A program made the position numbers and the translations under genes. Shown in pieces: positions 3,085 to 22,624 of a DNA stretch of 22,624 nt. The notes under the pieces are model-generated. The model made no database searches, was not told the DNA's origin, and saw only the letters and a program-made list of their open reading frames with translations. Origin of the DNA: Myxococcota bacterium (GTDB lineage Bacteria; Myxococcota_A; UBA9160; PR03). Positions within the stretch are counted from its first letter, which is position 1, and the number at the start of each line of letters is the position of its first letter. The stretch spans positions 1 through 22,624 of the forward strand of contig JBFIML010000054.1 in the NCBI GenBank assembly GCA_041611735.1, written 5' to 3'.

Positions 3085-3157
3085 TGGCGGTGGGTAGATT
3101 CGAACTACCGACACGCGGCTTATGAAACCGCTGCTCTAACCCCTGAGCTACACCGCC
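3085..3157 (-). tRNA. tRNA-Met (CAT), probably elongator; CCA not encoded
   Basis: GGCGGTG acceptor stem pairs with CACCGCC-A; D arm TAGCTCAGGGGTTAGAGC; anticodon arm GCGGT-TTCATAA-GCCGC; T loop GTTCGAATC. G1-C72 pair argues against initiator; Ile2 not excluded. Confidence 0.95.
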
Positions 3158-12094: not shown

Positions 12095-13261
12095 TCACGG
12101 CTTCACCAGGAGCGAGGCCTTCTCCTCCTCCCGGAGGGCGTCGAGCACCGGACGCAAGGCACGTTCGAGGAGCGCCCGGGCCACCGGGTTCTGTCGTGCA
12201 GGGAGCTCGCGGAAGGACCGGGCTGCCGCCAGACACACCCGCGCCACCTCCTCCTCCCCACGCCGCCACCGAACGTAGCCGGTTTCCTCCCAGCGCGTGG
12301 CGGCGCGCTCGCCCGCCTCGCCGCCGAAGCGCTCCTCGAGCAGTTCTCCGAGCAGCGCGTCGATGCGCTCCCGGCGCTGGGTGTCGGTCACCACGATCTC
12401 GCTGCGTGCGGCCCCGTGCAGGCGCTCGGCGAAGGCGCGCAGGCGCTCTCCCGCCGGGGGCCACGGTCCCACCTCGCCCTGCTCCACCAGCTCCACCGCC
12501 TGCCGCAGCCGCCCCGGCTCGGCCTCGGTGGGAAGCGCCTCGCGCACCCGCTCACCGGGGGTCTGGGTGCCCGGCGGCGCCTGGGCGACGCGCCCCCGCC
12601 ACTCGACGAAGGCGCGCGGCAGGACCCGATCCGGCGGCTGCAGCGCGGCCACCCGGGCGAGGCGCGCCCGCACCGCCTCCACCGGGGCCGCCACCACGCC
12701 GAAGCGTCCGCGTGCCTCGAGCTCGCGCAGCACACGCCGCGCTTCGGAGCGGTTGGCGGAGAAGGCCTGGAACTCGAGCACGCCCCGCTCGTCGTCCAGC
12801 ACGCCCTCGAACACCCTCGCCCCGCCGGCAGGATTCGCCTCCACGAGGACCACGAGCTGGGCGCCGCTGCCGTCGGTGGGCGAGAGGCGCGCACCCTCCA
12901 GGGCGTCCTCCATGTGGGGCAGGGTCGCCACCACCGGGGCCGCGGCGGAACGCTCCAGGACGAGACCGCGGGAGCGCAGCCGATGCAGGATGCGCCGCCA
13001 GGCCTTGCGCCCCTCCTTGCCGAGGCGGGCCTCGTCCAGTTGGCGCAGGGGCACGTGGCCCCCGGGCAGGTCCGCCCAGGCGGCGGCGAGCTCCTCACCG
13101 GCGTCCGGCTCCTCGCCGAGCAGCCAGCCGAGTACCCGAGCGGCCGCGGACGGGTCGAGGGCCTCGAGCAGGCGCGCCGGGTCTCCGTTGGCCGGCCGGA
13201 TGGCGTCGCCCGCGTCCGGCAGCGCCGAGGCGGCGCGTTCCAGGGCGTCCGCCAGGCTCAC
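12095..13261 (-). CDS. Hypothetical protein (388 aa), helical N-terminus
   Basis: GTGA overlap with cutA stop; KEGRKAWRRILHRLRSRG helix, DGSGAQLV; ends LLVKP. Confidence 0.8.
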   Translation of the reverse strand: MSLADALERAASALPDAGDAIRPANGDPARLLEALDPSAAARVLGWLLGEEPDAGEELAAAWADLPGGHVPLRQLDEARLGKEGRKAWRRILHRLRSRGLVLERSAAAPVVATLPHMEDALEGARLSPTDGSGAQLVVLVEANPAGGARVFEGVLDDERGVLEFQAFSANRSEARRVLRELEARGRFGVVAAPVEAVRARLARVAALQPPDRVLPRAFVEWRGRVAQAPPGTQTPGERVREALPTEAEPGRLRQAVELVEQGEVGPWPPAGERLRAFAERLHGAARSEIVVTDTQRRERIDALLGELLEERFGGEAGERAATRWEETGYVRWRRGEEEVARVCLAAARSFRELPARQNPVARALLERALRPVLDALREEEKASLLVKP

Positions 13262-18063: not shown

Positions 18064-18098
18064 GGCGACGGAGTGTAGAGGATGGGCAGCGCCCGCAA

Positions 18099-18193
18099 GC
18101 GAAGCGCGCAGCGAGGCGCAGCCGAGCGAAGTCCTGCGGGCGCAAGCGGGCGCCCCCGGCGTTGCGCGCAGCCAGGCGCAGCCGAGCCAGGTC
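18099..18193. repeat. Two 35-bp direct repeats at 60-bp period in a divergent intergenic region
   Basis: GCGAAGCGCGCAGCGAGGCGCAGCCGAGCGAAGTC (18099-18133) vs GCGTTGCGCGCAGCCAGGCGCAGCCGAGCCAGGTC (18159-18193), 30 of 35 identical. Confidence 0.85.
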
Positions 18194-18198
18194 TCGGG

Positions 18199-18204
18199 TA
18201 GAAT
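18199..18204 (+). promoter_or_regulatory. -10 box, probable leaderless transcript
   Basis: TAGAAT 6 nt before ATG 18211, no SD. Confidence 0.6.
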
Positions 18205-18210
18205 CGCGCC

Positions 18211-19665
18211 ATGTTGATGAACGCCGACGCCTACCTCGATTCGATCCGAAAACGCGAGATCCGGGTCTTCTTCCGGGGCGAGCTCCTGCCCAACGCCGTC
18301 GACCACCCGGTGCTGCACCCGGCCGCGAACTGCCTGGCGGAGACCTACCGGCTGGCGCTGGCACCCGAGACCCGCGAGCTCATGACCGCCCCCTCCCCCT
18401 TCACCGGCGAGCCTGCCAACGTGTCGAGCCTCCTATGGCGCTCCCGCGAGGACCTGATCGCACGCATCGAGTGGGAGCGCCTCGTGGGCCGCCGCACCGG
18501 CCGCGGCGCCCTGCGCTCTCCCGGTCTCGACGCCCTCAACACCCTCGCCATCGTGACCCGGCGCGTCGATCGGGAGCGTGGCACGGAGTACCGGGCGCGC
18601 CTCGATGCCTTCCTGCGCGAGGTGCACGAGCACGACTGGGCGGTGTCGGGCGCCATGACCGACCCCCGCGGCGACCGCAGCCGCAGGCCCGGCCAGCAGC
18701 TCGACCCGGACCTCTACCTGCGCGTGGTGGAGCGACGGCGCAACGGCGTCGTGCTGCGGGGCGCCAAGATGCATCAGACCTCCGCCTGCCACGCCCACTG
18801 GCACCTGGTACTCCCGCTCGGTTGCCGGGATGGCGAGGAGGACTGGGCCATCGCCGCGGCCGTCCCCTCCGACGCCCCGGGCCTCTACCACGTCCTCTCG
18901 CGCCAGCCCGGCGACGGACGACGCCTGGAGCCCGGCGACCTGGACGTGGGCATCAAGGACTTCGGCGGCTGCGAGTCGCTCATGGTGTTCGACGACGTCT
19001 TCGTGCCCGAGGAGCGCATCCTGCTGAACGGCGAAACCCCGTATACCCGTGACCTGGTGCACTACTTCGGCTCCTTCCACCGCCATTGCTACGGCGGCTG
19101 CAAGGTGGGCATCGGCGACGTGGCGATCGGTGCTGCCGCGGCGCTGGCGGAGATGCACGGCGTTCGCGAGCGGCCCATCGTGCAGGACAAGCTCACGGAG
19201 ATGGTGCACCTGAACGAGACCATGTACGCCTGCGCGGTGGCGGCCGGGGCGCTCGGCGAGGCGGTGGAGGACGTCTGGATCCCGAACCTGGCGCTGGCCA
19301 ACGTGACCAAGCTCAACGTGACGCGGCTGCCCTGGGAGATCGCGCGGCTCGCCACGGACCTGGCCGGCGGGTCGCTCACCACGCTGCCCGCCGAGGCGGA
19401 CCTGCGCCACCCGGAGCTCGGTCCGGTAGTTCGCAAGTACATGGCCACCCGGGCGGGCGTCGACCCGGAGGAGCGCATGCGCCTGCTCCGGCTGCTCGAG
19501 TTCCTGACCCACGGCATGGGCAGCACCTACTTCCTGCACGAGTCGCTGCATGGCGCCGGCGCGCCCGAGGCCATGAAGATCACCCTCCGCAAGGAGGTGG
19601 ACCTCGAGCCCCTGGTGGCCCAGGCCCGGCGCCTGGCCGGCTGCCAGGGGGGCGTGCTCGACTGA
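18211..19665 (+). CDS. 4-hydroxybutyryl-CoA dehydratase/HpaB-family flavoprotein, atypical
   Basis: GAMTDPRGDRS, GAKMHQT, GGCESLMVFDDVFVP, HRHCYGGCKVG, ESLHGAG; lacks the CFQRC-type motif. Confidence 0.88.
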   Translation: MLMNADAYLDSIRKREIRVFFRGELLPNAVDHPVLHPAANCLAETYRLALAPETRELMTAPSPFTGEPANVSSLLWRSREDLIARIEWERLVGRRTGRGALRSPGLDALNTLAIVTRRVDRERGTEYRARLDAFLREVHEHDWAVSGAMTDPRGDRSRRPGQQLDPDLYLRVVERRRNGVVLRGAKMHQTSACHAHWHLVLPLGCRDGEEDWAIAAAVPSDAPGLYHVLSRQPGDGRRLEPGDLDVGIKDFGGCESLMVFDDVFVPEERILLNGETPYTRDLVHYFGSFHRHCYGGCKVGIGDVAIGAAAALAEMHGVRERPIVQDKLTEMVHLNETMYACAVAAGALGEAVEDVWIPNLALANVTKLNVTRLPWEIARLATDLAGGSLTTLPAEADLRHPELGPVVRKYMATRAGVDPEERMRLLRLLEFLTHGMGSTYFLHESLHGAGAPEAMKITLRKEVDLEPLVAQARRLAGCQGGVLD

Positions 19666-19728
19666 TCGACTTGCTCCTCGGGCAGCCGGCCGGCGCCCGC
19701 GAGCAGGTCAAACTGTCAAGAACGCCCC
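19649..19728. repeat. Inverted-repeat element copy A (REPIN/MITE-like, degenerate)
   Basis: 28-bp arms 19649-19676 and 19701-19728, 22 of 28 complementary, 24-nt spacer. Confidence 0.8.
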
Positions 19729-19742
19729 GCAACGGAGGGCTC

Positions 19743-20702
19743 ATGCAGTACCGACGGCTCGGCGCCAGTGGCCTGCGGGTGAGCGAGGTCTCGCTCGGCT
19801 CCTGGCTCACGCTCGGGTCGAGCGTCGACCGCTCCGGAACCCGTCGCGTGGTGCGGCGCGCCCTGGATCTCGGCATCAATCTCCTGGACACCGCCGACGC
19901 CTACGCCCGGGGCGGGGCCGAGGAGGTGCTGGGCGAGGCGCTTCGGGACGCGCCCCGTCACCACCTGGTGCTGGCCACCAAGGCGTTCTTCCCCATGTCC
20001 GAGGACCCGAACGACCGCGGGCTCTCGCGCAAGCACCTGTTCGAGAGCGTGGAGGGCTCCCTGCGCCGGCTGGGGACCGACTACCTGGACCTGCACCAGT
20101 GCCATCGCCCGGACCCCGAGACGTCGATCGAGGAGACTGTGGCGGCCTACGAGGATCTGGTGCGCCAGGGCAAGCTGCTCTACTGGGGGGTCTCCGAGTG
20201 GCGCGCCGCGCAGCTCGTGGACGCCTGCCGCAGCGCCGACGCGCGTCGCGGCTTCCGGCCCATCTCGAACCAGCCCCAGTACTCGATCCTGCGCCGCCGC
20301 ATCGAGCGGGAGGTGATCCCGGTGTGCGAGCGGGAGGGCGTCGGACAGATCGTCTGGAGCCCGCTGGCCCAGGGGGTCCTCACCGGCAAGTACGCCGCCG
20401 GCGCCCGGCCGGCGCACTCCCGGGCGGTCGATCCGGAGCGCAACCGCTTCATGGACGCCTTCCTGCGCCCGGAGGTCCTGGAACGAGTGGGGAAGCTCGC
20501 GCCGCTGGCCGCGGAGCTGGGCCTCACGCTGGCGCAGCTCGCCCTGGCCTGGTGCCTGCGCCAGCCCAACGTGGCGAGCGTGATCGTGGGGGCGACCCGG
20601 CCCGAGCAGCTCGAGGAGAACGCGGGCGCGGCGGGCGTCGCGCTACCCGCCGACGTCGTCCGCCGGATCGACGAGCTGTTTCCCGGGGACGTTCCTGACT
20701 GA
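19743..20702 (+). CDS. Aldo/keto reductase (Kv-beta/Tas-like)
   Basis: MQYRRLGASGLRVSEVSLGSW, DTADAY, ATK, DLHQCHR, WSPLAQG, IVGAT; GGAGG SD. Confidence 0.95.
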   Translation: MQYRRLGASGLRVSEVSLGSWLTLGSSVDRSGTRRVVRRALDLGINLLDTADAYARGGAEEVLGEALRDAPRHHLVLATKAFFPMSEDPNDRGLSRKHLFESVEGSLRRLGTDYLDLHQCHRPDPETSIEETVAAYEDLVRQGKLLYWGVSEWRAAQLVDACRSADARRGFRPISNQPQYSILRRRIEREVIPVCEREGVGQIVWSPLAQGVLTGKYAAGARPAHSRAVDPERNRFMDAFLRPEVLERVGKLAPLAAELGLTLAQLALAWCLRQPNVASVIVGATRPEQLEENAGAAGVALPADVVRRIDELFPGDVPD

Positions 20703-20768
20703 TTGACTTCCTGGCTTGCTCCGGCCGCTTCCCCGGGGAGGAAGTCAATCCCTCAAGAACGTCCCCGG
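20683..20768. repeat. Inverted-repeat element copy B (REPIN/MITE-like; may double as a bidirectional terminator)
   Basis: 30-bp arms 20683-20712 and 20739-20768, 27 of 30 complementary, 26-nt spacer. Confidence 0.88.
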
Positions 20769-22165
20769 CTGACGTTCACGACCTGGATCTCGGTGAAGCC
20801 GAGCAGGCCCCAGGGGCCGTTCTCGACGCCGATTCCCGACCACTTGGCGCCGCCGAACGGGAGGTTCGGCAGGATCGTGATGTGGCTGTTCACCCAGGCG
20901 GTGCCGCACTCGAGCCGGCCCGCCACCTCCGCGGCGCGCTCCGGGTCGCTGGACCACACGGAGCCCGACAGGCCGTAGCGGGTGGCGTTGGCGCGCTCCA
21001 CCGCCTCGTCCACCTCCCGGTAGGCCAGCACGGGGAGGGCCGGGCCGAACTGCTCCTCGCCCACTAGGCGCGTCTCCTCGTCCACCCCGGTCATCAGCGT
21101 GGGCGGGTAGAAGTAGCCGGCGCTCTCCAGGGGCTGGCCGCCCGCCACGACGCGCGCCCCGTCCCGCTTGGCGTCCTCCACCAGCTCGATCACGCGCTCG
21201 AACTGCGGCCGGTTGTTCAAGGGGCCGAGCTGGTTGGCCGGGTCGAGGCCGTCGCCCACCTTGATGCCGCGCGCGAGCTGGGAGAGCTCCTGGAGCAGCG
21301 GCTCGTAGATCGACTCGTGCACGTAGAGCCGCTTGATGGCGCTGCACACCTGGCCGCTGTTCTCGAAGGCGCCCCAGAAGATCTTCTCTGCCACGCGCTT
21401 GGGATCCGCGTCGGGAAGCACGATGGCCGGGTCGTTGCCCCCGAGCTCGAGGGTCACGCGCTTCAGGTCCGGCGCCGCCGCCTGGGCCACCTTCTTGCCG
21501 GTGGCCACGGAGCCCGTGAACGAGATCTTGCGCACCGCCGGGTGCTCGGTGATCCAGGCCCCGAGCTGGTCGCCGCCGGAGATCACGTTGAAGACCCCAG
21601 CCGGCACCACGTCCCGCAGCAGCTCGCCGAGCTTGAGCGTGGAGAGCGGGGTGAAGGGCGACGGCTTGAGCACCACCGTGTTCCCGGCCAGCAGGGCCGG
21701 CGCCAGCTTCCAGACCGCCAGCAGCACGGGAAAGTTCCAGGGCGTGATGGCGCCCACCACGCCGAGCGGACGACGACGCACCTCCACGCGCCCCTTCTCG
21801 TCGTCCTGCACCACCTCGACGGGGATCTCCAGGCCGGCGGTGTACGAGAACCAGACCGCCGCACCGAGCAGCTCTTCGGTGGCCTTCTGGAGCGGCTTGC
21901 CCTGCTCCTGGGTCAGCAGGCGGGCCAGGTCCTGGAGGTTCGCCTTGACCGCCTCGGCGCAGTCGTTCAGGACGCGCCGACGCCGGGCCACGTCGCCCGA
22001 CCAGGCCGCAAAGGCGCGGCTGGCGGCGTCCATGGCGTCGTCGAGCTGGGTGCGGCTGCAGTCCGGCGCCTCGGCGAAGACGCTTCCCGTGGCCGGGTTC
22101 ACCACGCCGAAGCTGGACTCGCCCGCCACGGCCTTGCCGTCGATGGTCATCGCGAAGGAGCTCAT
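20753..22165 (-). CDS. NAD(P)-dependent aldehyde dehydrogenase
   Basis: ITPWNFP, FTGSVATG, LELGGND, GQVC, EQFGP, PFGGAKWSG; AAGGAGG SD before ATG 22165. Confidence 0.95.
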   Translation of the reverse strand: MSSFAMTIDGKAVAGESSFGVVNPATGSVFAEAPDCSRTQLDDAMDAASRAFAAWSGDVARRRRVLNDCAEAVKANLQDLARLLTQEQGKPLQKATEELLGAAVWFSYTAGLEIPVEVVQDDEKGRVEVRRRPLGVVGAITPWNFPVLLAVWKLAPALLAGNTVVLKPSPFTPLSTLKLGELLRDVVPAGVFNVISGGDQLGAWITEHPAVRKISFTGSVATGKKVAQAAAPDLKRVTLELGGNDPAIVLPDADPKRVAEKIFWGAFENSGQVCSAIKRLYVHESIYEPLLQELSQLARGIKVGDGLDPANQLGPLNNRPQFERVIELVEDAKRDGARVVAGGQPLESAGYFYPPTLMTGVDEETRLVGEEQFGPALPVLAYREVDEAVERANATRYGLSGSVWSSDPERAAEVAGRLECGTAWVNSHITILPNLPFGGAKWSGIGVENGPWGLLGFTEIQVVNVSRGRS

Positions 22166-22265
22166 GCGGACCTCCTTGGTCTGGGACGTGAGGAAAGGTA
22201 TCACCAGCCCCGGGGGCCACGCTACGCTCGCCGCGACACGCGTCCGATCCGGCCCCGGAGGTTGC

Positions 22266-22624
22266 ATGCGCCGCTGCTCCGCTCGCCCGCTCGCACTCGG
22301 CTACGGCGGGGCCTTGCTCCTGGCGGCGCTTGCGCTCGGGGCGGCCACGGAGCCGGCCGGCGCCGCGGACCGGGGGGCCGACGGCCGCTTCGACACGCGC
22401 CGCTCCTCCCATTTCGTGCTGCATCAGGACGTGGCGATCGACCGCCGCTCGGGCTGGCGGGGCTCGCTGCGCTTCGAGCGCGAGGTACTGGCAGCGCTCG
22501 AGGCGGCCTACGAGCGCCTGGACCGCCACCTCGGCCTGCGTCCGCGTCGTCCCGTGGTGGTGGTGCTGTACGACCCCGAGGTCTTCGAGCGCAGCTTCGC
22601 GGGTCTCTTCCGCTTCCCCGCGGC
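22266..22624 (+). CDS. Secreted protein, probably peptidase MA family (runs off window)
   Basis: GGAGG SD; open frame MRRCSARPLALGYGGALLLAALALG...SSHFVLHQD...LEAAYERLDRHLGLRPRRPVVVVLYD; HExxH not within window. Confidence 0.65.
   Translation, partial: MRRCSARPLALGYGGALLLAALALGAATEPAGAADRGADGRFDTRRSSHFVLHQDVAIDRRSGWRGSLRFEREVLAALEAAYERLDRHLGLRPRRPVVVVLYDPEVFERSFAGLFRFPA

Follow-up and report, generated by a model that had tools for sequence, protein, structure and literature searches.

Why should two similar hairpins stand on either side of a single metabolic gene? The 22,624-nt contig JBFIML010000054.1 of the Myxococcota bacterium assembly GCA_041611735.1 (the window; contig C54 of the genome here called G000) contains two inverted repeats, copies A and B, which bracket a gene for an aldo/keto reductase (AKR). 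An initial annotation, made from the letters alone, had placed both correctly, quoting four arms that match the sequence, and had read them as members of a little-described non-autonomous family with the AKR gene as a possible cassette between them. The family is borne out by the rest of the genome, while the cassette is contradicted by related genomes. We consider it likely that the hairpins form an old family built from terminal inverted repeats (TIRs) of the TIRYT type, possibly orphaned, whose arms are now the ends of many genes. Copies A (decayed) and B (well kept) would then be two members of a non-autonomous family of about 45–50 copies, of a kind that is known and barely described, and the explanation as a whole, including this part, is one that we hold with good confidence. 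Each element would be a short copy-specific centre enclosed by two inverted TIR copies of a TIRYT-type transposon, or TIRtron, by which we mean a single RAYT-like Y1/HUH transposase gene with a DnaA_C-like helix-turn-helix (HTH) tail, lying between long TIRs that begin GGGGAC.

The arms of A and B recur throughout G000, an assembly of 4.09 Mb in 118 contigs with 72.3% GC and 95% completeness. A profile search of the genome with nhmmer gave 108 arm hits at E ≤ 10 (87 with E ≤ 0.1, 67 with E ≤ 1e-3), from which 43 convergent hairpin pairs of 70–123 bp (median 89) could be drawn up over some 30 contigs; later counts take in copy A and C3 129369–129533 and leave out the alternative pairings C49 8698–8820 and C3 129369–129458. 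Besides these inverted dimers there are solo arms at gene ends, at least seven of them strong, and one nested pair (C49 8698/8732). Allowing up to two mismatches, an arm pattern of 24 positions matched at 59 places in the genome and, reversed as a control, at none, so the arm family is not a product of chance, and the dispersed, little-described, non-autonomous family proposed at the outset stands. Two mini-palindromes (C44:6170–6199 and C9:52582–52613) consist of the outer 14–15 nt of both arms set head to head and look like internal deletions of full elements.

The arm consensus, taken from 71 arms in register, is 28 nt long: GGGGACGTTCTTGACTGATTGACTTCTC. The profile begins and ends sharply, at positions 0/1 and 28, and a C directly precedes the arm in 46 of the 71. 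Conservation is highest in GGGGACG and in the GAC triplets at 13–15 and 21–23, the variable columns are 12, 16, 17, 20, 25, 26 and 28, and the arm holds two TTGAC(T) words 8 nt apart. The consensus is not self-complementary and lacks GTAG, and its GACG at positions 4–7 (CGTC on the other strand) is not terminal. The arms had been described as free of both GTAG and CGTC; this was right for GTAG, but the GGGGACG tip of copy B does read CGTC on the other strand, subterminally and not as a terminal tag.

Arms from different copies share 20.7 of 28 positions (~74%) and arms from the same copy 21.7 of 28 (36 elements; 0 of 5,000 permutations reached the observed value). Positions 10 and 12 account for almost all of this excess; at the others, changes are mostly one-armed and break pairs, and it is therefore the sequence, not the pairing, that is conserved. 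The covarying inner stems reported for A and B are real in those two copies, but they do not represent the family, in which most changes fall on one arm only; similarly, CCGGCCG is present in both of their spacers, but in only 3 of the 43 centres. To judge from this divergence, the family looks old. The centres, 14–67 nt long, show no likeness between copies, the sole alike pair being the neighbours C3 142648 and 143082. These two (C3:142648–143172, equivalent to L154:17149–17673) have near-identical centres and surround a gene of ~110 codons with the arm-coded tail AGDVLD*, for which a DNA-level match was seen only in G002, on another contig than the flanking genes; it is the sole cassette-like case seen.

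The identity of the arm comes from other phyla. An exact scan of public collections with the arm pattern returned four contigs of metagenome-assembled genomes (MAGs), assigned to Desulfurivibrionaceae, Thermodesulfobacteriota, 'Deltaproteobacteria' and Omnitrophota, and five metagenome contigs, all of 34–55% GC. On the MAG contigs L068 and L071 the arm lies just 5' of an open reading frame (ORF) that matches Y1_Tnp. The most complete arrangement is that of G041, in which inverted arms at 12431 (+) and 13492 (−), 1,062 bp apart, surround a single ORF of 330 codons. Its protein scores 45.2 bits with Y1_Tnp, 24.5 bits with Bac_DnaA_C (below the cut-off of 31.5) and 62.8 bits with the NCBIfam model REP_Tyr_transpos (below the cut-off of 80), and an HFH motif and a RYIHLNP tyrosine motif can be read from its sequence. 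The left TIR runs from its TTGACT through a 17-nt spacer to TAAGAT and then the ATG, the right TIR overlaps the TAA of the gene, and the TIR agrees with the G000 arm consensus at 25 of 28 positions. The same gene (protein 99.7% identical) with the same flanking arms is found on the metagenome contig L149, and another metagenome contig carries the arm as 89-bp hairpin doublets. At the level of sequence, these contigs establish that the arm serves in other genomes as the terminal inverted repeat flanking a Y1/HUH transposase gene. This arrangement has a name: the available text of Di Nocera 2013 (PMC3733652) calls it TIRtron, with the transposase TIRYT, notes that many of the TIRs begin GGGGWSAS and records that some TIR repeats form dispersed families of singles, dimers and groups, and in that of Quentin 2018 (PMC6006769) TIRYT is TnpA_REP subclass 2.1, with members that have Bac_DnaA_C or HTH tails.

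Closer relatives hold variants of the same system. Of 60 relatives from the same order, 19 have a Y1_Tnp gene, and in five of seven such loci inspected the gene is surrounded by inverted repeats tipped GGGGAC or GGGAC. The sister genus G003, which is syntenic with the window at 75–86% nucleotide identity, has a TIRYT of 336 residues, 38% identical to protein P0001 over 313 residues, whose gene is flanked by GGGGACGTTCgTTGCCTTgGTTGCCTTTTCGGGGACC. Its arm variant, GGGGACGTTCCTTGCCTTGGTTGCC, with TTGCC for TTGAC, occurs as 25 arms (16 forward and 9 reverse), most with 0–1 mismatches; two flank the TIRYT gene and 23 are dispersed, among them hairpins and a nested double hairpin. Eight G003 contigs (C160, C178, C195, C199, C224, C289, C300 and C51) end at or within ~50 nt of their own TIR copies, and the G003 copy number is therefore probably undercounted. 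A third variant, with TTGCG, occurs in G001 and G010. In the sequences compared, the tip GGGGACGTTC does not change, and the TTGNC word, which occurs twice, varies by lineage. The G000 arm is closer to the Desulfobacterota-type TIR than to that of the sister genus, and horizontal arrival of the arm family is therefore possible. Arm copies flanking a Y1/RAYT transposase, which the initial annotation had suggested looking for, thus exist in other genomes, and with a variant arm in G003, but none was found in G000.

If the arms are transposon ends, what have they become at this locus? The features that bear on this are the following:

18211–19665, plus strand: HpaB-family gene (HpaB_N and HpaB domains), with its stop within copy A
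19648–19676: copy A left arm, decayed, with A5 changed to G and one extra nucleotide close to its inner end (nhmmer 17.1 bits, E 0.016)
19677–19700: copy A centre, 24 nt, GC-rich and copy-specific, forming the hairpin top
19701–19728: copy A right arm, with A5 deleted, assigned by eye against the family consensus
19743–20702, plus strand: AKR gene, with its last five codons and stop supplied by copy B
20683–20712: copy B left arm (nhmmer 33.6 bits)
20713–20738: copy B centre, 26 nt, copy-specific
20739–20768: copy B right arm (nhmmer 30.7 bits)
20753–22267, minus strand: aldehyde dehydrogenase (ALDH) gene, convergent with AKR, with its last four codons and stop from copy B

As inverted repeats, copy B has two 30-nt arms, 20683–20712 and 20739–20768, that are 90% complementary around a 26-nt spacer, and copy A two 28-nt arms, 19649–19676 and 19701–19728, that are 79% complementary around a 24-nt spacer; between the copies, the left arms are 79% and the right arms 76% identical. 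The right arm of copy A escapes nhmmer because its A5 is deleted. RNA folding gives a single long hairpin for each copy, at −52.6 kcal/mol for A (z −5.55) and −55.0 for B (z −7.51); over both copies and either strand the values range from −52.6 to −58.5 kcal/mol (z −5.2 to −7.6), and none of 200 shuffles was as good in any of the four folds. No Rfam family matched the hairpins in a search of the whole window at E ≤ 1, the sole match being a tRNA gene on the minus strand at 3085–3157 (67.7 bits). Contigs of a second study hold both copies with 0–1 differences. In X6 there is one low-depth joint, of less than 95% likeness, that skips 20649–20780; it may come from a relative that lacks copy B and is too weak to use.

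All three genes around the hairpins end at a TGA borne by an arm. The left arm of copy A contains the stop of the HpaB-like gene (19663–19665, arm position 16). The left arm of copy B codes the last five AKR residues, GDVPD, and the stop at 20700–20702, again at arm position 16, and its right arm, read on the minus strand, supplies the ALDH tail RGRS and the stop at 20755–20753 (arm position 12). On the outgoing side, the AKR Shine–Dalgarno sequence GGAGG lies 5 nt past the right arm of copy A, and the ATG follows at 19743.

The same holds across the genome. The 43 elements lie between convergent (14), tandem (19) or divergent genes (8), with 2 unclear, and at least one gene reads into 35 of them. 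They take up all of the room between their neighbouring genes. Among 387 convergent pairs that have no element, 22% overlap and 32% have gaps of at most 10 nt, distances that are rough because they come from a crude GC-frame gene caller (2,192 genes, 71% coding). For the stop count, the 87 hits and the right arm of copy A make a set of 88 arms, at 51 of which a coding-like ORF comes in; 41 of these ORFs terminate within the arm, with stops at position 12 (15 ORFs), 16 (17) or 20 (9), which are the three frames of TGAcTGAtTGA. Nine others end 0–9 nt before the arm and one ends 286 nt before it. The arm-encoded tails, RGRS*, GDV(L/P)D* and GTF...*, make up the last 3–6 residues. All three frames are closed in only 12 of the 88 arms, so that the three-frame stop belongs to the consensus and not to each copy. 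The G003 arms have no stop in two or more frames. Directly before 8 of 23 G003 arms stands TA or TGA, and in five or six of these cases the arm adjoins the stop codon of a coding-like ORF, which is suggestive of the stop codon as an insertion target. Repeat termini that give flanking ORFs their stop codon have been described for the repetitive extragenic palindromic (REP) sequences of the GTAG class, in the available text of Di Nocera 2013 (PMC3733652). A literature search on REP stop codons in all three reading frames found nothing relevant.

Comparison with relatives suggests how these ends arose. AKR faces ALDH at 7 of 11 relatives' loci, and in four of the seven the two stops overlap or lie 3–9 nt apart with no element between them (…LFPA*, …NIAKA*); the other three junctions hold unrelated inserts of 88–298 nt. 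In G000 the proteins end …LFP|GDVPD* and …NVS|RGRS*, and copy B therefore takes the place of ~17 nt of native sequence, both stops included. By this synteny the AKR–ALDH pair is ancestral at the locus. In a protein atlas, the ALDH falls with aldehyde dehydrogenases that come mostly from Pseudomonadota. The inserts at relatives' junctions are those of L084, L086 and L089, of which the L084 insert consists of three tandem units of ~100 nt; the L084 and L160 inserts have the motif …CGTAGCGAGCC…AGGCGA… in common.

Empty sites were found in relatives for all six loci reconstructed (copy B, C8:73371, C8:77353, C8:81146, C3:129369 and C3:130720), the five beyond copy B from G001, G002, G003, G006 and G011. 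The relatives that align are empty in three of four cases at C8:73371 (the fourth has an unrelated insert), five of five at C8:77353, three of three at C8:81146, and two of two at both C3:129369 and C3:130720. At each of these five sites the element stands in place of 10–44 nt of native DNA. The four with an incoming gene have lost the native stop and the last 1–5 codons; the divergent site lacks one of its native start codons, and the ATG of the other gene abuts the arm. Outgoing genes retain a GGAG directly after the arm. This consistent trimming of native ends may come from DNA deleted as the element inserted, from displaced remnants lost afterwards, or from a target at the stop codon. We had also considered that the centre might be native intergenic DNA caught between two independently inserted arms; this is ruled out, as the relatives' empty sites measure 0–44 nt and are unlike the centres. 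The idea that the centres diverged through age only is weakened by G003, whose near-identical arms enclose centres that differ. C8:73371 and C3:130720 are paralogous two-gene operons (upstream …GLGLP…, downstream MDF…), each with an element of unrelated centre at nearly the same junction, and relatives' copies of both operons are empty.

The gene that does vary at this locus is the upstream one. It had been taken for a dehydratase, and its domains place it instead in the HpaB family. Only in G000 and G003 does it separate AKR from the conserved genes upstream, at 86% nucleotide and 89% amino acid identity against 75–77% nucleotide identity in the flanks; the upstream gene abuts AKR directly in G006 and G002. 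A query with the HpaB-like protein found no counterpart at that level of identity in 13 other genomes of the family, and two more have only homologues of ~31%. In G003 the contig runs out within the HpaB gene, ~50 nt before the copy A site is reached. In the spacer 5' of this gene, at 18085–18200, there is a second dispersed repeat of two similar GC-rich units (…GCGCGCAGCsAGGCGCAGCCGAGC…), with 16 further matches in the same genome and others in the sister genus G003.

Taken together, we picture the hairpins as having spread in trans through a cognate TIRYT that would act on single-stranded hairpin DNA. Judging from the pattern of conservation, the Y1 domain may use the constant GGGGACGTTC tip, and the HTH domain may read the two TTGAC repeats. 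The cognate gene would since have been lost or have escaped assembly, and the family would now be an old, decaying relic, with arms that persist partly as gene ends and as stable hairpins at the 3' ends of transcripts.

REPINs keep their spacer from copy to copy, and the insertion sequences of the IS200/IS605 group use a fixed target of 4–5 nt. The nearest published relatives of the G000 family, as far as the available parts of the literature describe them, are the TIRtrons themselves (PMC3733652, PMC6006769), which have a RAYT-like Y1/HUH gene with an HTH/DnaA_C-like tail between long inverted repeats starting GGGG, no typical REP hairpin beside the gene, and TIRs dispersed in moderate numbers as singles, inverted dimers and groups. 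The G000 family differs from them in its tip, GGGGACGT instead of GGGGWSAS, in its high-GC host, in lacking a detected TIRYT and in a consensus arm with TGA in all three frames; neither genus-wise arm variants (TTGAC/TTGCC/TTGCG) nor the replacement of native gene ends was found in the parts of the TIRtron literature examined. With the REPIN–RAYT system, as the available text of Bertels and Rainey 2011 (PMC3116915) presents it, the elements share two inverted units around a spacer that form one hairpin, non-autonomy, a tie to Y1 enzymes and an intergenic position; unlike REPINs, they have an arm that is not itself palindromic, no terminal GTAG, a copy-specific spacer and no flanking single-copy RAYT in G000. 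Like the stop-donating GTAG REPs (Di Nocera 2013, PMC3733652, in part), which abut or overlap coding regions and whose termini supply stops, the arms end genes, but here the stop lies 12–22 nt into the arm, any of the three frames being used, with 3–6 residues added and the native stop and last codons lost. The Y1/HUH enzyme and the lack of target duplication are common to IS200/IS605 elements such as IS608 and ISDra2 (abstract of Quentin 2018, PMC6006769); these have subterminal hairpins at their ends, no long TIRs and no DnaA_C-like domain, unlike a TIRtron.

Several observations weigh against an origin from TIRYT ends. No Y1_Tnp or TIRYT-like gene was found in G000 with the Pfam model PF01797 or with protein P0001, and tblastn with two TIRYT proteins gave a best E of 0.17, although in a genome 95% complete and in 118 contigs the absence of a transposase is not proven. 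The initial annotation had proposed searching the arm in the genome and in relatives, and alongside the many copies in G000 the pattern occurs in none of 40 relatives, 16 from other genera of the same family and 24 from the same order; exact matches come only from distant lineages of lower GC, so that its origin may be either horizontal or vertical. A family copied as a unit should share its centres, and the unrelated centres count against such copying, the more so as G003 shows the same with near-identical arms. The arms are only ~74% identical between copies, yet some positions are kept in 62–70 of 71 arms, unlike a dead selfish relic. The tip GGGGACGT fits six of the eight positions of the published GGGGWSAS, a motif shared by many and not all TIRs, while the tip of the G011 TIRYT, GGGGACAG, fits it in full. 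Finally, the available parts of the literature that uses the term (Di Nocera 2013; Quentin 2018) yielded no experiment on any TIRYT.

The hairpins could mainly be host devices, that is, transcribed gene-end stem-loops that selection keeps because they end transcripts, make them more stable or adjust how the upstream gene is translated. Their great stability on both strands agrees with this, as do the genes reading into 35 of 43 elements, the conservation of key arm positions despite unrelated centres and the slightly better state of arms that bear an ORF end (4.60 against 5.45 mismatches), and REP hairpins are said to be post-transcriptional control sequences in the available text of Di Nocera 2013 (PMC3733652). 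We nevertheless regard a mainly host-derived role as improbable. A consensus scan of 19300–21100 found no stem-plus-U-tract, terminator-like site, and the GC-rich flank after the stem does not make an intrinsic (Rho-independent) terminator; moreover, 8 of the 43 elements lie between divergent genes, compensatory changes are few and arm differences mostly disrupt pairing, other genomes have the same sequence as a transposon end, and all relatives searched manage without the element. Those divergent sites, with the two TTGAC(T) words 8 nt apart and the best-kept GAC triplets at 4–6, 13–15 and 21–23, would also fit operators at which a host HTH regulator or nucleoid protein reads the TTGAC repeats, the family then being a regulon and not mobile DNA. 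This seems very unlikely to us, given that most copies sit at gene 3' ends beside functionally unrelated genes, that the sites are empty in all relatives examined and the sequence is a transposon end elsewhere, and that a consensus scan of 19300–21100 revealed no sigma-70-type promoter at A or B.

A short core between terminal inverted repeats, scattered through intergenic DNA, is an architecture that would suit miniature inverted-repeat transposable elements (MITEs) derived from a conventional DDE insertion sequence. However, the elements lack a flanking target-site duplication, the distribution of flank matches over the 43 being that of shuffled left/right pairings, which is the expectation for HUH enzymes; no arm pair 0.3–4 kb apart around a gene was found in G000; and it is Y1 genes, not DDE genes, whose ends the arms match, so that a DDE origin has very little to recommend it. 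The least credible alternative is that A and B bound an AKR cassette resembling an integron attC array or a composite transposon. Two related hairpins around one gene, and the copies with near-identical centres at C3:142648–143172, invite that reading, but the AKR–ALDH adjacency exists without such elements in 7 of 11 relatives' loci; A and B resemble one another no more than they resemble other copies, and their centres differ; and copies are spread over some 30 contigs beside syntenic housekeeping genes with no tandem array, no search for an integron integrase having been made.

TIRYT-derived hairpins thus remain our preferred explanation, and they invite a more far-reaching proposal, which we put forward as a doubtful one when all its parts are taken jointly. 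TIRYT hairpins might be gene-end seekers that replace termini at or inside the stops of packed genes. In this lineage the arm consensus TGAcTGAtTGA, with its hairpin, might be a universal three-frame end module, and the host would now depend on it at ~1% of its genes. A two-part code that co-evolves with each TIRYT could consist of the GGGGACGTTC tip, for the Y1 domain, and the TTGNC repeats of each genus, for the DnaA_C-like HTH domain, and the hypervariable centre would stem from the chemistry of transposition and not from age.

For the reading of synteny, the locus is a warning that look-alike hairpins around a gene need not make that gene a cassette. It also presents mobile DNA that rewrites gene ends: at least 41 ORFs finish in an arm, which is relevant to annotators and to anyone expressing such proteins. 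TIRYTs are a large branch of HUH/Y1 transposases, and the lineages compared here offer a natural series with a constant tip and inner repeats of TTGAC, TTGCC or TTGCG, in which a young G003 family with its gene stands against an old G000 family for which none was found. Such a series could show how TIRYTs recognise their ends and what becomes of the repeats once the enzyme is gone.

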